Below, in pieces: positions 3,890 to 38,101 of a DNA stretch of 64,000 nt. Source of the stretch: Escherichia coli (GTDB taxonomy: Bacteria; Pseudomonadota; Gammaproteobacteria; Enterobacterales; Enterobacteriaceae); assembly GCF_036507355.1 (NCBI RefSeq), contig NZ_AP027877.1; one strand, 5' to 3'. The notes under the pieces were generated by a model. That model saw only the letters and a program-made list of their open reading frames with translations. It was not told the origin of the DNA and made no database searches. How positions within the stretch are numbered: the first letter of the stretch is position 1; each line of letters starts with the position of its first letter. Position numbers and translations under genes: made by a program.

Positions 3890-6079
3890 ATGCTTTACAA
3901 AGGCGACACCCTGTACCTTGACTGGCTGGAAGATGGCATTGCCGAACTGGTATTTGATGCCCCAGGTTCAGTTAATAAACTCGACACTGCGACCGTCGCC
4001 AGCCTCGGCGAGGCCATCGGCGTGCTGGAACAGCAATCAGATCTAAAAGGGCTGCTGCTGCGTTCGAACAAAGCAGCCTTTATCGTCGGTGCTGATATCA
4101 CCGAATTTTTGTCCCTGTTCCTCGTTCCTGAAGAACAGTTAAGTCAGTGGCTGCACTTTGCCAATAGCGTGTTTAATCGCCTGGAAGATCTGCCGGTGCC
4201 GACCATTGCTGCCGTCAATGGCTATGCGCTGGGCGGTGGCTGCGAATGCGTGCTGGCGACCGATTATCGTCTGGCGACGCCGGATCTGCGCATCGGTCTG
4301 CCGGAAACCAAACTGGGCATCATGCCGGGCTTTGGCGGTTCTGTACGTATGCCACGTATGCTGGGCGCTGACAGTGCGCTGGAAATCATTGCCGCCGGTA
4401 AAGATGTCGGCGCGGATCAGGCGCTGAAAATCGGTCTGGTGGATGGCGTAGTCAAAGCAGAAAAACTGATTGAAGGGGCGATGGCGATTTTACGCCAGGC
4501 CATTAACGGCGACCTCGACTGGAAAGCGAAACGTCAGCCGAAGCTGGAACCGCTAAAACTGAGCAAGATTGAAGCCACCATGAGCTTCACCATCGCTAAA
4601 GGGATGGTCGCACAAACGGCGGGGAAACATTATCCGGCCCCCATCACCGCAGTAAAAACCATTGAAGCTGCGGCCCGTTTTGGTCGTGAAGAAGCCCTAA
4701 ACCTGGAAAACAAAAGTTTTGTCCCGCTGGCGCATACCAACGAAGCTCGCGCACTGGTCGGCATATTCCTTAACGATCAATATGTAAAAGGCAAAGCGAA
4801 GAAACTCACCAAAGACGTTGAAACCCCGAAACAGGCCGCTGTGCTGGGCGCAGGCATTATGGGCGGCGGCATCGCTTACCAGTCTGCGTGGAAAGGCGTG
4901 CCGGTTGTCATGAAAGATATCAACGACAAGTCGTTAACCCTCGGCATGACCGAAGCCGCGAAACTGCTGAACAAGCAGCTTGAGCGCGGCAAGATCGATG
5001 GTCTGAAACTGGCTGGCGTGATCTCTACAATCCACCCAACGCTCGACTACGCCGGGTTTGACCGCGTGGATATTGTGGTAGAAGCTGTTGTCGAAAACCC
5101 AAAAGTGAAAAAAGCCGTACTGGCAGAAACCGAGCAGAAAGTACGCCCGGATACCGTGCTGGCGTCTAACACTTCAACCATTCCTATCAGCGAACTGGCC
5201 AACGCGCTGGAACGTCCGGAAAACTTCTGCGGGATGCACTTCTTTAACCCGGTACATCGGATGCCGTTGGTGGAAATTATTCGCGGCGAGAAAAGCTCCG
5301 ACGAAACCATCGCGAAAGTCGTCGCCTGGGCAAGCAAGATGGGCAAAACGCCAATTGTGGTTAACGACTGCCCCGGCTTCTTCGTCAACCGTGTGCTGTT
5401 CCCCTATTTCGCCGGTTTCAGCCAGCTGCTGCGCGACGGCGCGGATTTTCGCAAGATCGACAAAGTGATGGAAAAACAGTTTGGCTGGCCGATGGGTCCG
5501 GCATATCTGCTGGATGTCGTGGGCATTGACACCGCGCATCACGCTCAGGCGGTGATGGCAGCAGGCTTCCCGCAGCGGATGCAGAAAGATTATCGCGATG
5601 CCATCGACGCGCTGTTTGATGCCAACCGCTTTGGTCAGAAGAACGGCCTCGGTTTCTGGCGTTATAAAGAAGACAGCAAAGGTAAGCCGAAGAAAGAAGA
5701 AGACGCCGCTGTTGACGACCTGCTGGCAGAAGTCAATCAGCCGAAGTGCGATTTCAGCGAGGAAGAGATTATCGCCCGCATGATGATCCCGATGGTCAAC
5801 GAAGTGGTGCGCTGTCTGGAAGAGGGCATTATCGCCACTCCGGCAGAAGCGGATATGGCGCTGGTCTACGGCCTGGGCTTCCCTCCGTTCCACGGCGGCG
5901 CGTTCCGCTGGCTGGACACCCTCGGCAGCGCGAAATACCTCGATATGGCACAGCAATATCAGCACCTCGGCCCGCTGTATGAAGTGCCGGAAGGTCTGCG
6001 TAATAAAGCGCGTCATAACGAACCGTACTATCCACCGGTTGAGCCAGCCCGTCCGGTTGGCGACCTGAAAACGGCTTAA
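3890..6079 (+). CDS. fadB: Fatty acid oxidation complex alpha subunit FadB
   Basis: Start [25 protein letters not shown] with GGAG RBS; the ORF-track start at 3764 is an upstream extension running through the FadR operator. Confidence 0.95.
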
Positions 6080-32510: not shown

Positions 32511-33401
32511 ATGGATGCAAAACAAACGCGGCAGGGCGTATTACTCGCTCTTGCCGCTTATTTTATTTGGGGTATAGCCCCAGCGTACTTCAAGTTGATT
32601 TACTACGTGCCCGCCGATGAAATCCTGACGCATCGCGTGATCTGGTCGTTTTTCTTTATGGTGGTGCTGATGAGCATTTGCCGCCAGTGGTCCTATTTAA
32701 AAACGCTGATTCAGACGCCACAGAAAATTTTTATGCTTGCAGTCTCTGCCGTGCTGATTGGTGGCAACTGGCTACTGTTTATCTGGGCGGTGAACAATCA
32801 CCATATGCTGGAAGCGAGCCTTGGTTACTTTATTAACCCGCTGGTGAACATTGTGCTGGGGATGATTTTCCTCGGCGAGCGATTCCGCCGGATGCAATGG
32901 CTGGCGGTGATTCTGGCGATATGTGGCGTGTTGGTTCAGCTGTGGACTTTTGGTTCACTGCCGATCATCGCGCTGGGACTGGCATTTAGTTTTGCCTTCT
33001 ACGGTCTGGTACGCAAGAAGATTGCCGTTGAAGCGCAAACCGGCATGTTAATCGAAACTATGTGGCTGCTGCCCGTGGCGGCAATTTACCTGTTTGCTAT
33101 TGCCGATAGCTCAACCAGCCATATGGGGCAAAACCCGATATCGCTGAATTTACTGCTGATCGCTGCCGGTATTGTCACTACCGTACCGCTGTTGTGTTTT
33201 ACTGCAGCTGCGACACGCCTGCGTCTCTCAACGTTAGGCTTTTTCCAGTACATTGGCCCGACGCTGATGTTCCTGCTGGCTGTGACGTTTTATGGTGAAA
33301 AACCGGGTGCCGATAAAATGGTGACTTTCGCCTTTATTTGGGTGGCGCTGGCAATTTTTGTGATGGATGCAATTTATACTCAACGTAGAACGTCCAAATA
33401 A
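32511..33401 (+). CDS. rarD: EamA/DMT-family transporter RarD
   Basis: 296-aa polytopic ORF MDAKQTRQGVLLALAAYFIWGIAPAYFKL. Confidence 0.92.
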   Translation: MDAKQTRQGVLLALAAYFIWGIAPAYFKLIYYVPADEILTHRVIWSFFFMVVLMSICRQWSYLKTLIQTPQKIFMLAVSAVLIGGNWLLFIWAVNNHHMLEASLGYFINPLVNIVLGMIFLGERFRRMQWLAVILAICGVLVQLWTFGSLPIIALGLAFSFAFYGLVRKKIAVEAQTGMLIETMWLLPVAAIYLFAIADSSTSHMGQNPISLNLLLIAAGIVTTVPLLCFTAAATRLRLSTLGFFQYIGPTLMFLLAVTFYGEKPGADKMVTFAFIWVALAIFVMDAIYTQRRTSK

Positions 33402-33435
33402 AAAATAAATATATTCTGAAAAAATATGCCGACTC

Positions 33436-33813
33436 TTGCATGAGAGTGGGCATATTGCCATGCTGACAGGAGACTCACACAAGGATGTAAAATTTATGTT
33501 ACGTATGTTTATCCCAACATCTAACGGTAAGATTTCCAGACGCCGTTATATATTTTCATTTATTTTAATAAACTTCATTTTTGCCTTTCTTATTATCTTT
33601 TTTAACGATGGAGAAGCAGGTTTTCTTGTTATAGTCTCTACCATCTTACTCCATTATCTCGTCATCAATCTGAATTGCCAACGACTCCGTGATAGTGGTT
33701 TCGTCTATATAAAAACTTATGTTTTTGGTACATTAGCAGTATATATCATCTCTATCATCACAATGATAGCCGAAGATTTTGCCTGTTCAGGCAATGGTTC
33801 GATGATTTTTTAA
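33436..33813 (+). CDS. yigG: Small inner membrane protein YigG
   Basis: 125-aa ORF with two hydrophobic helices; position after rarD; AT-rich. Confidence 0.6.
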
Positions 33814-33888
33814 TTTGTTATTTTTCCACTTTCAGTATGCTAATGCTTGCACCTACTGATTCATCAAAACAATAGTTATGGAGTATTT

Positions 33889-34269
33889 ATGAGTAAGGAA
33901 TATATGAACGATGGTTCATTAAGTGAAAAATGGAAATACCGATTTAATTTTTATGATCAACATGGTTTTCCTGGATTCTGGGGGGCAACACCAGAATATA
34001 AAGCAGCATTTAAAGCATTAAAAGTAAGACAACGCTTAACTATTCAAATGAATTTCATTGCTTTCTTCTGTTCCTAGATATATTTATTTGTCCTGGGGTT
34101 ATGGAAAAAAGCAATTATAGTTCTATTACTTGGTATTCTATCTCTATTTGTTGGTGCACTAATTGGCGTTAACATTCTGGGTATTGCCGTAGCAGCCTAT
34201 GTTGCTGTTAACACGAACAAATGGTTCTATGAGAAAGAAGTAAAAGGGTTAAATACCTGGAGCCTTTGA
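33889..34269 (+). pseudogene. yigF: yigF (DUF2628-type small membrane protein) interrupted by an in-frame amber codon at 34075-34077
   Basis: MSKEYMNDGSLSEKWKYRFNFYDQHGFPGFWG... stops at TAG after 62 codons, then the same frame stays open for 63 more protein-like hydrophobic codons to TGA at 34267-34269. Confidence 0.6.
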
Positions 34270-34309
34270 ATAAGAGGTGGCTTAGCCAGGCTAAGCCACC
34301 GCCTTCTTT

Positions 34310-34445
34310 TTACAACCAGTTCTTGCGCTTAAAGTACAGATACGGTGCCAGGCCCGCGAGGATCATAAAGATAATCGCGCCTGGGTAGCCGAAACTCCAC
34401 TTCAGTTCTGGCATAAACTCAAAGTTCATGCCATAGCTGGAGGCA
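34310..34445 (-). repeat. Orphan near-identical copy of the corA 3' end (direct repeat of 36017-36150)
   Basis: Encodes ...[43 protein letters not shown], the CorA C-terminus including the GMN motif; only a few mismatches to the intact corA 3' end. Confidence 0.85.
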
Positions 34446-34637
34446 ATCCGCGTAGGAAAAAGTTTCCTAATCGGTAAATTCAACATATTGTTATTAACAA
34501 TGGGCAAAACCAATCAATAACGAGATTCCCTTCGGAATGTAATAAAAATGTGAAGTGTACTTCTTTTTTAAAATTTTTTATCCTAGCATTTGTTCTCAAA
34601 TTGATATTGAGCTTAAATATAACCAAGGAAAATGTAA

Positions 34638-35345
34638 ATGAATAACACATTACTTCCATCAATTAATATTCCCTGTACACTTTTCGAAACTATTAGTTTA
34701 TTTGATGATTATTCTGCTGATGATATGCAATATGGTGATATGGTAGAACAAGATTTTCTCTCACTCGGCCTAAGCGATATCTCAGCAAAAGTTGATCCTT
34801 ACAGACTTATTAAATACCATTTCCCTGGCCCAGGTTCTGTTAATGTTGTTTTTAGTGCCTCAAGTTCCGGAACAAAAATATCACAACGTGAATGCACTGA
34901 TATTTTATTTGCAGAAATGAAAGAACTAGCAAAAAATTTTTCCTTTTTTGGACAATATAAAACACTTATCGAAGATCTGATTGAACATTTTAGATATGGA
35001 AATGGCAGCAATTTTCATAGCCAACAATTAAATTTATCTTTTCATGAAAAGATAAATAAATATGGTTATAATAGTCCAATACGAATAATCAAAGAATGTA
35101 TCGAAAATGGCATTAATTCAACTCCCTCGACAGGATACCAACCTCTTATCCTGCAAAGCATTAAAACCAAATTACTTTCATCAAGACTAAATAAATTTAA
35201 TGACTTCGAGGACAGTTTTAATGGCTTAGGAATCAGTATTCATGATATTTCAGCTCAAAAAAATATCTCTTTTAAGCTTTCAAAAATACGCTATAGGGTG
35301 GAGTGCGACAATTCATTTTGTAGCACAGGACCACTTCGGTCTTGA
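34638..35345 (+). CDS. Hypothetical protein in the AT-rich corA-adjacent insert; probably frameshifted (alternative frame continues to 35487)
   Basis: 235-aa ORF with no match recalled; AT-rich; an A7 tract at 35260-35266 lies where a second frame opens and runs to a TGA overlapping the next gene start. Confidence 0.45.
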   Translation: MNNTLLPSINIPCTLFETISLFDDYSADDMQYGDMVEQDFLSLGLSDISAKVDPYRLIKYHFPGPGSVNVVFSASSSGTKISQRECTDILFAEMKELAKNFSFFGQYKTLIEDLIEHFRYGNGSNFHSQQLNLSFHEKINKYGYNSPIRIIKECIENGINSTPSTGYQPLILQSIKTKLLSSRLNKFNDFEDSFNGLGISIHDISAQKNISFKLSKIRYRVECDNSFCSTGPLRS

Positions 35346-35483
35346 TGTAACTGATATCAAAAACAAGACTTACAGCAAATATAGATTTTTTCGCATATGG
35401 TTCTTTTTACAACGGCATAAAGGCTTTGCTTTCAAACCTTTTTTCACCAATTTTAACACTATCGAAAGAATCGAAAATTATCT

Positions 35484-35975
35484 ATGAAAAGCAAACGCCA
35501 GAAAATTATATTATGTTTATTTCTTCTATGCTGTATCTATAATTTATGGACATTGCGTCCTGTACAGATTTTGTATACATACTCTGATGCTGGCAATTCA
35601 GTCTTTCTGGTCGTTGATCATCTGCCATGGACTGACAGCGATAAAATAAATTGGTATCTGAAGCATCAGAATGAAATTAAAAATCAACATCCCCTACCAG
35701 AAGGTAGTTGGCATACCTGGTATGTCATTGATATCGGTAATGGCTTCACTGACTATAAAAAATATATCGAAGGGCCGTATGAAGATCTCTACTGTTTCCC
35801 GACAATTAAGAGCAATGATAATTGCATCGTGAAAAATTACTTAATGGTTATTAATGAATACCCTTATCGTAACACTCATATTGGTATTAACGATTTTACT
35901 GAGTATCAATTAACACAAGAAAATAAAATAGAGCGAGTTTTCAATCCGCATGACTTTAAAAAAGACAATTTTTAG
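35484..35975 (+). CDS. Hypothetical small membrane-anchored protein (N-terminal signal/TM segment), second gene of the insert
   Basis: 163-aa ORF MKSKRQKIILCLFLLCCIYNLW...; Trp/Tyr-rich; AT-rich; followed by a GCCGGATAAA...TTTATCCGGC hairpin. Confidence 0.5.
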   Translation: MKSKRQKIILCLFLLCCIYNLWTLRPVQILYTYSDAGNSVFLVVDHLPWTDSDKINWYLKHQNEIKNQHPLPEGSWHTWYVIDIGNGFTDYKKYIEGPYEDLYCFPTIKSNDNCIVKNYLMVINEYPYRNTHIGINDFTEYQLTQENKIERVFNPHDFKKDNF

Positions 35976-36016
35976 AAATAAGCCGGATAAAAAAATAGCT
36001 TTATCCGGCACTCATA

Positions 36017-36967
36017 TTACAACCAGTTCTTCCGCTTAAAGTACAGATACGGTGCCAGGCCCGCGAGGATCATAAAGATAATCGCGCCTGGGTAGCCGAA
36101 ACTCCACTTCAGTTCTGGCATAAACTCAAAGTTCATCCCGTAGCTGGAAGCAACCAGCGTTGGCGGCAGGAACACGACGGATACCACCGAGAAAATTTTG
36201 ATGATGCGGTTCTGCTCGATGTTGATAAAACCCATTGCCGCCTGCATCAGGAAGTTCACCTTCTGGAACAGGGATTCGTTATGCGGCAGCAGGGATTCGA
36301 TATCTCGCAGGATTTCACGCGCCTGCTCCAGTTGCCCACCCGGTAAGCGTGCTTTACGTACCAGGAAGTTGAGAGCGCGCTGGGTATCCATCAGACACAG
36401 GCGAACTTTCCAGCCGATATCTTCCAGTTCCGCCAGAGTGGAGAGCGCCTCGTCGTACTCATCGCCCTGATGCCCTTCCATAATCACCCGGCTCAATTGC
36501 TCCAGGTCGCTATAGATATTTTCAATTTCATCTGCCAACTGTTCGATTTTGGTTTCGAACAAATCCAGCAGCAACTCGTAGGCGTTACCGTCTACCATCG
36601 ACTGGCTACGGGCACGCATACGATATAGACGAAAAGCGGGCAGTTCACGCTCACGCAGAGTAAACAGACGACCATCACGGATGGTAAATGCCACAGTGGA
36701 GTTACCGGCGTGATCTTCCGCATCTTCAAAGAAGAAGAAGGAGTGAATATGCAGGCCGTCATCGTCTTCAAAGAAACGTGCCGATGCTTCGATGTCTTCC
36801 AGTTCCGGGCGGGTTGCCAGGCTCTGGCCAAGTTCAGATTGTACGCGCAGTCGCTCGTCGTCGTCCGGTTCGACAAGATCAATCCATACTGCATTTACAA
36901 GGGGTTGTGACTCTTCGACTTCCAGCCGGGTCAGTCGGTTATTTTCCAGTTGAAATGCGCTCAGCAT
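36017..36967 (-). CDS. corA: Magnesium/cobalt transport protein CorA
   Basis: Start placed at [31 protein letters not shown] (316 aa); GMN motif and C-terminal TM helices. Confidence 0.95.
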
Positions 36968-37336
36968 GACCGGGACTCCCAATGCTTAAAATATCGGACA
37001 GTTCGGTGGGCACACAGAAACAAATTGGGTTTCAGACCATTAAACAGCCTGACTCAGCGCGACGGGAAAAATTGAGGTCGCTGACAACCGCTAAGGCTAT
37101 CAGCAAAAAGGGATAGCCTTAGGAGTTGATCCTGGATGACAGGATAGTGAGCCAGTATCTACTGGGTGTGTCCAAGGCGAATGTCCTCTTAGAGTGATCG
37201 TGCGCGCATGTTACGCCAGCAAAATTTTGCCGTCAACACGCAACAGAACACCACAGAACAATAGTTGAACTTCGCGCTTTTTGGTACTCGTCAAGGTCGC
37301 TAACAGGATAAAAAAATCCCACATCCAGGACCTATA

Positions 37337-38101
37337 ATGGCGCATCGGCTACTCATTGGTAAAGGAATGATCACCTTGAATCTCAAACGGATTTTTCTCG
37401 CCCTCACCTTACTTCCCTTGTTTGTTGTTGCCGCTGATGATTGCGCACTCTCAGATCCGACGCTGACCGTACAGGCGTATACCGTTAATCCTCAAACAGA
37501 GCGGGTGAAAATGTACTGGCAAAAAGCCAATGGCGAAGCGTGGGGAACTTTACATGCTCTGCTGGCGGATATGAATAGTCAGGGTCAGGTGCAGATGGCG
37601 ATGAACGGCGGCATCTATGATGAAAGCTATACGCCGCTCGGTTTGTACATCGAAAACGGTCAGCAGAAGGTGGCGTTAAATCTCGCTTCAGGTGAAGGGA
37701 ATTTCTTTATCCGTCCTGGCGGCGTGTTTTATGTCGCGGGAGATAAAGTCGGCATCGTTCGTCTGGATGCCTTCAAAACCAGTAAAGAGATTCAGTTTGC
37801 GGTGCAGTCAGGGCCAATGTTGATGGAAAACAGTGTAATTAATCCGCGTATTCATCCCAACGTCGCCTCACGTAAAATTCGTAACGGTGTTGGGATTAAT
37901 AAACATGGGAATGCCGTGTTTTTGTTGAGCCAGCAGGCGACAAATTTTTATGATTTTGCCTGTTATGCCAAAGCGAAACTGAACGTTGAGCAGCTGCTTT
38001 ATCTTGATGGCACGATTTCACATATGTATATGAAAGGCGGGGCAATCCCGTGGCAACGCTATCCTTTTGTCACCATGATTTCCGTCGAGCGGAAAGGTTA
38101 A
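37337..38101 (+). CDS. yigE: Secreted protein YigE
   Basis: 254-aa ORF with N-terminal signal sequence; position between corA and uvrD. Confidence 0.8.
   Translation: MAHRLLIGKGMITLNLKRIFLALTLLPLFVVAADDCALSDPTLTVQAYTVNPQTERVKMYWQKANGEAWGTLHALLADMNSQGQVQMAMNGGIYDESYTPLGLYIENGQQKVALNLASGEGNFFIRPGGVFYVAGDKVGIVRLDAFKTSKEIQFAVQSGPMLMENSVINPRIHPNVASRKIRNGVGINKHGNAVFLLSQQATNFYDFACYAKAKLNVEQLLYLDGTISHMYMKGGAIPWQRYPFVTMISVERKG

Follow-up and report, generated by a model that had tools for sequence, protein, structure and literature searches.

The AT-rich block that separates yigF from the gene of the magnesium transporter, corA, in a 64 000-nucleotide stretch of Escherichia coli DNA (contig NZ_AP027877.1; the whole stretch is hereafter called the window) is probably a two-gene effector–immunity operon of the DUF3289 and DUF943 families, with a toxin gene that is broken in this strain and a duplicated corA tail that is the scar of a recombination event. 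Observed in this study are the family membership of both genes, the fold of the toxin, its broken gene beside an intact immunity gene, the repeat with its flanks, and the distribution of the block among genomes. The function of the family is already known, having been published in 2024-2025, and our modest additions concern the frameshift, the way in which the site varies across the population, and an apparent reuse of the corA remnant. Current understanding is not overturned; the value of the locus lies in annotation, as a concrete function for a gene pair carried by half of sequenced E. coli whose members were two 'domains of unknown function' until 2024, and in a test case for orphan-effector delivery and for the allele specificity of immunity. 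It also offers a small, well-defined example of a competition module entering and moving at a core-gene boundary and decaying to immunity only.

A split toxin gene and an intact immunity gene

An earlier note on this DNA, written without database searches, had left the two genes of the block unassigned while likening them to the DUF3289 and DUF943 families. The likeness was correct for both, and the genes are not unassigned, as every RefSeq record that we inspected annotates a DUF3289 or YPO3983 family protein together with a DUF943 family protein. An intact homologue of the first gene (34638..35487, plus strand; 282 codons if intact) matches Pfam DUF3289 (PF11692) with E 9.9e-85 and the NCBIfam 'YPO3983 family' model TIGR03034 with 438.8 bits (E 7.7e-132; curated cut-off 156.45 bits) over model positions 1-274. 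The truncated open reading frame (ORF) of the window scores 297.9 bits (E 6.7e-89) against the same model, covering only positions 1-215 of 274. In a profile search of the PDB, the family motif DHFGLDxxD aligned with the structure 9JDI (E 3.8e-22), and the fold is that of a solved DUF3289 protein.

Of the two ORFs described earlier, with 235 and 163 codons, both are present, but the first is the front of a longer gene and not a complete one: the 235-aa ORF (34638-35345) and an 81-aa ORF (35242-35487) form one 282-codon gene split by a +1 frameshift. The alignment places the lesion in a run of seven A residues at 35257-35263, where three intact E. coli homologues have six, and the frameshifted product would consist of native residues 1-208 followed by 27 out-of-frame residues up to a stop at 35343-35345. 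Because the frameshift precedes them all, every invariant residue of a 45-sequence family alignment is lost from the toxin of the window (H232, F233, G234, D239, F251, W254, L257, Q258 and P267, all nine past residue 208), and the family motif QDHFGLDxxD...F..W..LQ...PF.T, at residues 230-270 of the intact protein, is out of frame. Judged by its sequence, the gene descends from the family, yet it is a pseudogene.

What counts against a genuinely broken gene is that only one public record, that of a 4.64-Mb E. coli chromosome, contains the exact split ORFs, so that the lesion is either private to this strain or a homopolymer sequencing error. If an error in the A-run produced the frameshift, the operon would be intact and working, as in most carriers. 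All other aligned toxin copies have the six-residue run and homopolymer length errors are common with some sequencing chemistries, but yigF, 1.2 kb away, carries a nonsense mutation caused by a base substitution, which is of another kind than a homopolymer artefact and points to a genuine decay of genes in this lineage. Loss of the toxin with retention of immunity also does occur at this locus: strain EC18 (L017 1921-3238) has an insertion sequence, IS1, in the 5' part of its DUF3289 gene and an intact DUF943 gene, an independent knockout that supports decay towards orphan immunity. We therefore consider a sequencing or assembly error possible but rather improbable, and retain the broken toxin gene as our reading. 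Strain EC18 has a second IS1 near rarD. At the level of the population both genes are kept by selection, since the ratios of non-synonymous to synonymous substitution rates (dN/dS) against Salmonella are low (0.12-0.25 for the toxin gene and 0.16-0.21 for the immunity gene).

The second gene (35484..35975, plus strand; 163 aa) is intact and matches Pfam DUF943 (PF06092) with E 4e-27 over positions 1-150 of 151. Its ATG overlaps the toxin stop codon by 4 bp (ATGA), and the order of toxin then DUF943 is the same in Salmonella, Enterobacter, Lelliottia and PAAR-fused loci. In the predicted model (predicted local distance difference test, pLDDT, 88), residues 2-24 form a transmembrane helix, and an alpha/beta domain comes after it. 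Profile match, a predicted N-terminal anchor with a periplasmic domain and a position directly downstream of the toxin are all in keeping with a DUF943 immunity gene, and the strain appears to retain only this half of the pair.

Function of the family and delivery of the toxin

Periplasmic toxicity, rescue by DUF943 and delivery of orphan DUF3289 proteins by way of a type VI secretion system (T6SS) are known from papers on relatives and would extend to the E. coli pair by analogy. In Yersinia pseudotuberculosis, a PAAR-DUF3289 protein from a T6SS operon is toxic in the periplasm of E. coli, where it rounds the cells, and the downstream DUF943 protein, with a single transmembrane helix and a periplasmic body, rescues from it (Geller et al., 2024; PMC11148199). 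Binding and neutralisation of the cognate toxin by DUF943 are experimental for this Yersinia pair only, and in the same study DUF3289 was proposed to be a colicin M homologue, from a Foldseek match to PaeM (PMC11148199). In Aeromonas jandaei, an orphan DUF3289 protein belongs to the T6SS-dependent secretome and was validated, together with the downstream gene, as an effector–immunity pair (Fridman et al., 2025; PMC12135965). DUF3289/DUF943 clusters co-occur with T6SS in a survey of Klebsiella (PMC12469244), and DUF3289 is also found as the C-terminal toxin of PIX-domain orphan effectors in Enterobacterales; a literature search for the name 'YPO3983' returned nothing. The earlier suggestion that the layout of the pair is compatible with a toxin/immunity module agrees with the family experiments in Yersinia and Aeromonas (PMC11148199, PMC12135965).

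The closest parallel is the Yersinia pair T6EC1/T6IC1, in which the two Pfam families are the same and the toxin likewise precedes the immunity protein; it has the TIGR03034 module over all 274 positions and an immunity protein with one N-terminal transmembrane helix and a periplasmic body. T6EC1 is nonetheless PAAR-fused and encoded inside a T6SS operon, whereas the E. coli protein is the bare module and has no PAAR or T6SS neighbours. In this respect it resembles the A. jandaei orphan effector, a free-standing DUF3289 protein whose gene lies apart from those of the T6SS and directly precedes the gene of a small membrane immunity protein, and T6SS secretion and antibacterial activity have been shown for this effector (PMC12135965); there, however, the immunity protein has 95 aa with three transmembrane segments and is not DUF943, and the genus is a different one. 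A third comparison is with the BtpeA C-terminal domain and BtpiA of Bacteroides fragilis (PDB 9JDI, 9JG8/9JG9). BtpeA, with 608 aa, is an effector of the PAAR type that belongs to a Bacteroidota T6SS, and the E. coli DUF943 model is unlike any PDB chain, BtpiA included.

On this basis, the intact 282-aa protein, which has no signal peptide, would be made in the cytoplasm and be toxic only on reaching the periplasm, where it would damage the cell wall, possibly by attacking the peptidoglycan precursor lipid II like colicin M, as has been proposed for the family. DUF943 would be anchored in the inner membrane by its one N-terminal helix and neutralise the toxin with its periplasmic globular domain. 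Delivery to rival cells would most probably occur through the T6SS, with the E. coli protein acting, by analogy with its relatives, as an unlinked 'orphan' cargo effector. In the window, where the toxin is truncated at residue 208, before the invariant DHFGLDxxD core, an orphan immunity gene would remain functional and would still guard the cell from DUF3289 toxins of its type that neighbours fire.

Two results weigh against this interpretation. No T6SS gene adjoins the pair in the E. coli, Salmonella, Enterobacter or Lelliottia loci examined, and Foldseek found nothing significant in the PDB for the DUF943 model (best E 0.03, probability 0.11). The neighbours in E. coli and Salmonella are rarD, yigG, yigF and corA, with no linkage or fusion to vgrG, hcp, PAAR or an adaptor, and PAAR fusions of DUF3289 occur only in more distant relatives. 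Genetic linkage to T6SS genes is, however, no requirement for orphan effectors. The pair could instead work independently of the T6SS in E. coli, as a chromosomal addiction or bacteriocin-like module whose toxin would have some other way into the periplasm or into other cells and whose immunity gene would stabilise the locus. Such a module would fit the missing T6SS neighbours, the presence of the cassette in the laboratory lineages B/BL21 and C, and the purifying selection on the toxin gene. Against it, the toxin has neither a signal peptide nor a colicin-type receptor-binding or translocation domain, its whole 282 aa being the TIGR03034 module; some of its relatives are PAAR-fused, use of the T6SS has been demonstrated for orphan DUF3289 effectors (PMC12135965), and an orphan location is usual for cargo effectors. 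We consider a T6SS-independent module quite improbable, and a T6SS cargo effector the better account of the pair.

The relationship to colicin M deserves separate comment. The DUF3289 fold has been proposed to resemble the catalytic domain of colicin M, whose relatives include the bacteriocins PaeM and pectocin M1, and periplasmic action and the phenotype of cell rounding or lysis are alike. The colicin M immunity protein Cmi, like DUF943, has an N-terminal helix as its anchor and a periplasmic orientation. The colicin M catalytic motif DxYD(x5)HR was absent from the intact DUF3289 protein in a regular-expression search; the conserved acidic/histidine motif of the protein is DHFGLDVTD (residues 231-239). 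A structural likeness of DUF943 to Cmi or BtpiA was rejected, the Foldseek comparison with the PDB having no significant match.

The expression host BL21(DE3) and related strains carry the cassette, so that a widely used laboratory host has a chromosomal DUF943 immunity gene. BL21 is nevertheless killed by periplasmic T6EC1, and the E. coli DUF943 is thus evidently not cross-protecting, or unexpressed, from which it follows that immunity depends on the allele or that expression of the chromosomal gene is poor.

Among 1.84 billion representative proteins searched, DUF3289 was recovered in three architectures: stand-alone proteins of ~280 aa; proteins of ~400-450 aa with an N-terminal extension, one of them a PAAR-DUF3289 protein followed by DUF943; and fusions of 600-1449 aa whose match is confined to residues ~85-280 and lies at the C-terminus. 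These three architectures form the pattern of a polymorphic toxin domain. Immunity arrays occur in relatives, with three DUF943 genes behind a single DUF3289 gene in Lelliottia wanjuensis (L014 6001-8459) and two tandem toxin–immunity pairs in an Enterobacter sp. (L009 4499-7319); both lie between fadH-like and lsrK-like genes, a different site that is also bounded by core genes. Such arrays, and the loss of a toxin with its immunity gene kept, liken the locus to the orphan immunity genes found at polymorphic toxin loci.

The rarD-corA site and the origin of the duplicated corA tail

The insert is present in 2635 of 5426 complete E. coli genomes (49%; counted at >=80% coverage, that is at least 80%), among them O157, O145, BL21(DE3) and strain C. 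It is missing between yigF and corA in K-12 BW25113, whose order is rarD-yigG-yigF-corA, as the earlier note had stated. Comparing the corA 3' flank among genomes, which that note had proposed, revealed alternative occupants and at least six states of the rarD-corA interval: (a) the K-12 type with yigG-yigF; (a') the same genes as alleles only 80-86% identical to K-12 (L005); (b) the state of the window, yigG-yigF-hairpin-corA'-cassette, where corA' is the left copy of the corA tail; (c) the O157 state, with an 845-bp segment containing other small membrane-protein ORFs, an intergenic stretch of the 'empty-site' type and corA'-cassette; (d) a decayed 5' yigG stub joined directly to the cassette, without corA'; and (e) an empty site with 128 bp from rarD to corA (strain S87, L006). 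Junction-specific queries assigned 300 genomes to state (b), the rarest of the three cassette states, 1410 to (c) and 931 to (d), a sum of 2641 that agrees with the 2635 carriers. The same site is occupied in Salmonella enterica subsp. houtenae, arizonae and salamae, where the order is rarD-toxin-immunity-corA with no remnant and the proteins share 64% amino-acid identity; the Salmonella upstream region is too diverged for defining the left end of the cassette. The cassette is an old, polymorphic occupant of the rarD-corA site and no recent exotic import, the earlier description as a foreign cassette having overstated the point, and the interval seems to collect alternative small membrane-protein genes.

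The borders of the block were otherwise described correctly. A repeat search confirmed a direct repeat of 152 nt at 94% identity (34305-34456 and 36012-36163, spacing 1707), and a pairwise alignment, in the role of the dot-plot that had been suggested, found the copies nearly identical for ~134 nt inward from the corA stop, with similarity fading to noise by ~34470, as described. This is far beyond chance, because apart from it no repeat longer than 22 nt was found in 33300-37100. The block between the copies is AT-rich as stated, with a GC content of 0.27-0.36 over 34450-36000 against 0.50-0.53 in corA and rarD; yigG and yigF are equally AT-rich (0.31-0.34). The hairpin seen between the copies lies at 35982-36009, and a second was found at 34276-34300. 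No terminal inverted repeats, integrase or IS elements were found in the block or at its ends. An anti-phage or prophage origin was dropped, since neither PADLOC nor PHROGs gave a match for the toxin, the immunity protein, yigF, yigG or an O157 99-aa protein.

The left copy, corA' (34310..34466, minus strand), is a pseudogene fragment comprising the last ~50 codons of the resident's former corA, with a translation ending in ...KRKNWL; other RefSeq records list it as 'CorA family divalent cation transporter, incomplete'. Next after corA' in state (b) still comes the K-12-type yigF/corA hairpin, an 11-bp stem at 34276..34300 (GGTGGCTTAGCCAGGCTAAGCCACC) that in K-12 is the bidirectional terminator separating yigF and corA and is here stranded beside the remnant, and corA' carries K-12-type single-nucleotide polymorphisms (SNPs; CATGCCATAGC). 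The functional corA gene (36017..36967, minus strand; 316 aa) has a cassette-type 3' end of ~180 nt (36017 to ~36194), which is the right repeat copy. This tail and the hairpin GCCGGATAAAAAAATAGCTTTATCCGGC (35982..36009), a cassette-type terminator serving both DUF943 and corA, are the same as in state (d) genomes without the remnant, the hairpin being identical in one such genome (L003). In an SNP matrix of seven corA genes, those of the window, strain Res13 and O157 match the (d) type to ~36194 and differ beyond it, whereas K-12 corA differs at 9 sites within the first 180 nt. Flanks and SNP patterns together indicate that corA' is the former tail of the resident gene and that the one which corA uses today arrived with the cassette. 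The earlier claim, that the cassette entered by recombination at the corA 3' end together with a corA tail of its own, fits the hairpins, the SNPs and the terminator flanks.

The simplest reading is one homologous crossover and one illegitimate join, by a route that we infer as follows. Incoming DNA consisting of the upstream region, toxin, immunity gene, terminator and corA tail would have undergone a homologous crossover ~180-210 nt inside corA, while its other side was joined illegitimately to the resident corA ~150 nt from the stop, leaving the old corA tail stranded beside yigF. The corA' copy may later have served as a homology patch that let the cassette adjoin different left flanks. 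State (c) is consistent with such exchanges: it has the same corA'-cassette junction behind an 'empty-site' flank, and the first corA' bases follow that background (TTACAG as opposed to TTACAA). In state (d), yigG' joins the cassette within 0-16 nt of the corA' end point, and this state may have arisen when a (b)-like chromosome lost the repeat through a deletion that spared the upstream region of the operon. A join so near the end of corA' is then expected, because such a deletion must spare that region. Two points tell against the illegitimate join: the model rests on seven genomes, and by itself it leaves unexplained why yigG' in state (d) is joined to nearly the same cassette end.

The duplicate tail could alternatively derive from a circular intermediate of cassette and corA tail that integrated by a single homologous crossover, which gives exactly a cassette flanked by direct repeats of the target; or else rarD-cassette-corA could be ancestral and yigG-yigF-corA' have been inserted later, in line with the remnant-free order in Salmonella and in the 931 E. 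coli genomes of state (d). There is no integrase, IS or att-like site in or beside the cassette, however; state (d) keeps a decayed 5' piece of yigG, so that yigG predates the deletion next to the cassette, and the corA remnant carries the resident-type terminator. We regard both of these routes as unlikely and favour the crossover with an illegitimate join. The latter resembles homology-facilitated illegitimate recombination in having one homologous anchor in a core gene and one illegitimate join, and differs in that the scar is a 150-nt duplicate of a core-gene tail, present in 1710 genomes and apparently reused as a homology arm.

Recombination has also affected the cassette itself. Compared with a state (d) cassette (L003), that of the window is 13-20% different from 34474 to ~35368 and only 0-1% different from 35369 through DUF943 into the corA tail (to 36194), and this abrupt drop marks a recombination breakpoint inside the toxin gene. 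The last ~40 toxin codons, the immunity gene and the corA tail are common to the two and the first ~240 codons belong to another allele, so that two toxin alleles (85% amino-acid identity) occur with one immunity allele (98-99%).

A more speculative possibility, to which we give only tentative credence, is that the duplicated tail is a built-in homology arm that makes the cassette portable through RecA, allowing insertion at any E. coli corA 3' end, irrespective of the left flank, as well as precise excision. If so, it would explain why the same corA'-cassette junction stands beside two unrelated left flanks in 1710 genomes; deletion of the remnant, as in 931 genomes, would have fixed the cassette in place, and immunity-only derivatives like the window would be a defensive end state. 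IncHI1 plasmids with an IS1-captured piece that includes the cassette-type tail could then be conjugative carriers of homology.

Plasmids as vehicles of the cassette were rejected, as no true plasmid contains it: two full-length 'plasmid' matches are chromosome-sized records (1.0 and 4.8 Mb), and the remaining 51 plasmid matches cover only the last 98 nt before corA. The IncHI1 plasmids (R27, pHCM1 and ~50 others) carry a 1699-bp segment that is 98.6% identical to 35919-37617 of the window (in R27, NC_002305.1 87328-89026; L015). The segment runs from the final 57 nt of DUF943 through the hairpin, corA and ysgD into the beginning of yigE. It directly abuts the end of an IS1 and therefore has the look of a piece that IS1 captured from an E. 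coli chromosome with the cassette.

Other features of the locus

Between corA' and the cassette lies a junction zone (34467..34473) within ~10-16 nt at 34458-34473 that read AAAAAGTTTCCTAATC; corA similarity is gone by ~34463, and the sequence common to the remnant-free state (d) begins at 34474 (GTAAATTCA). The region from there to the toxin start (34474..34637, plus strand) is common to all three cassette states and is presumably the promoter or leader of the operon; no strong sigma-70 consensus was found in it. The corA remnant is still open, as a 67-aa ORF (34310-34513, minus strand) with a TTG start that contains the GMN motif region and the last CorA transmembrane helix.

In O157 (L002), yigG/yigF are replaced by a 99-aa multi-transmembrane protein without a family match (5075-5374, minus strand) and by an unannotated 128-aa ORF (5590-5976, plus strand) that has a yigG-like 'KRIRDTG' stretch. 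In the window, the left neighbour outside the cassette is yigF (DUF2628; 33889..34269, plus strand), in which a codon-by-codon comparison with K-12 and strain Res13 located the in-frame stop W63*, a TGG to TAG change at 34076 (codon 34075-34077). It is the second inactivating change within 1.2 kb of the toxin frameshift.

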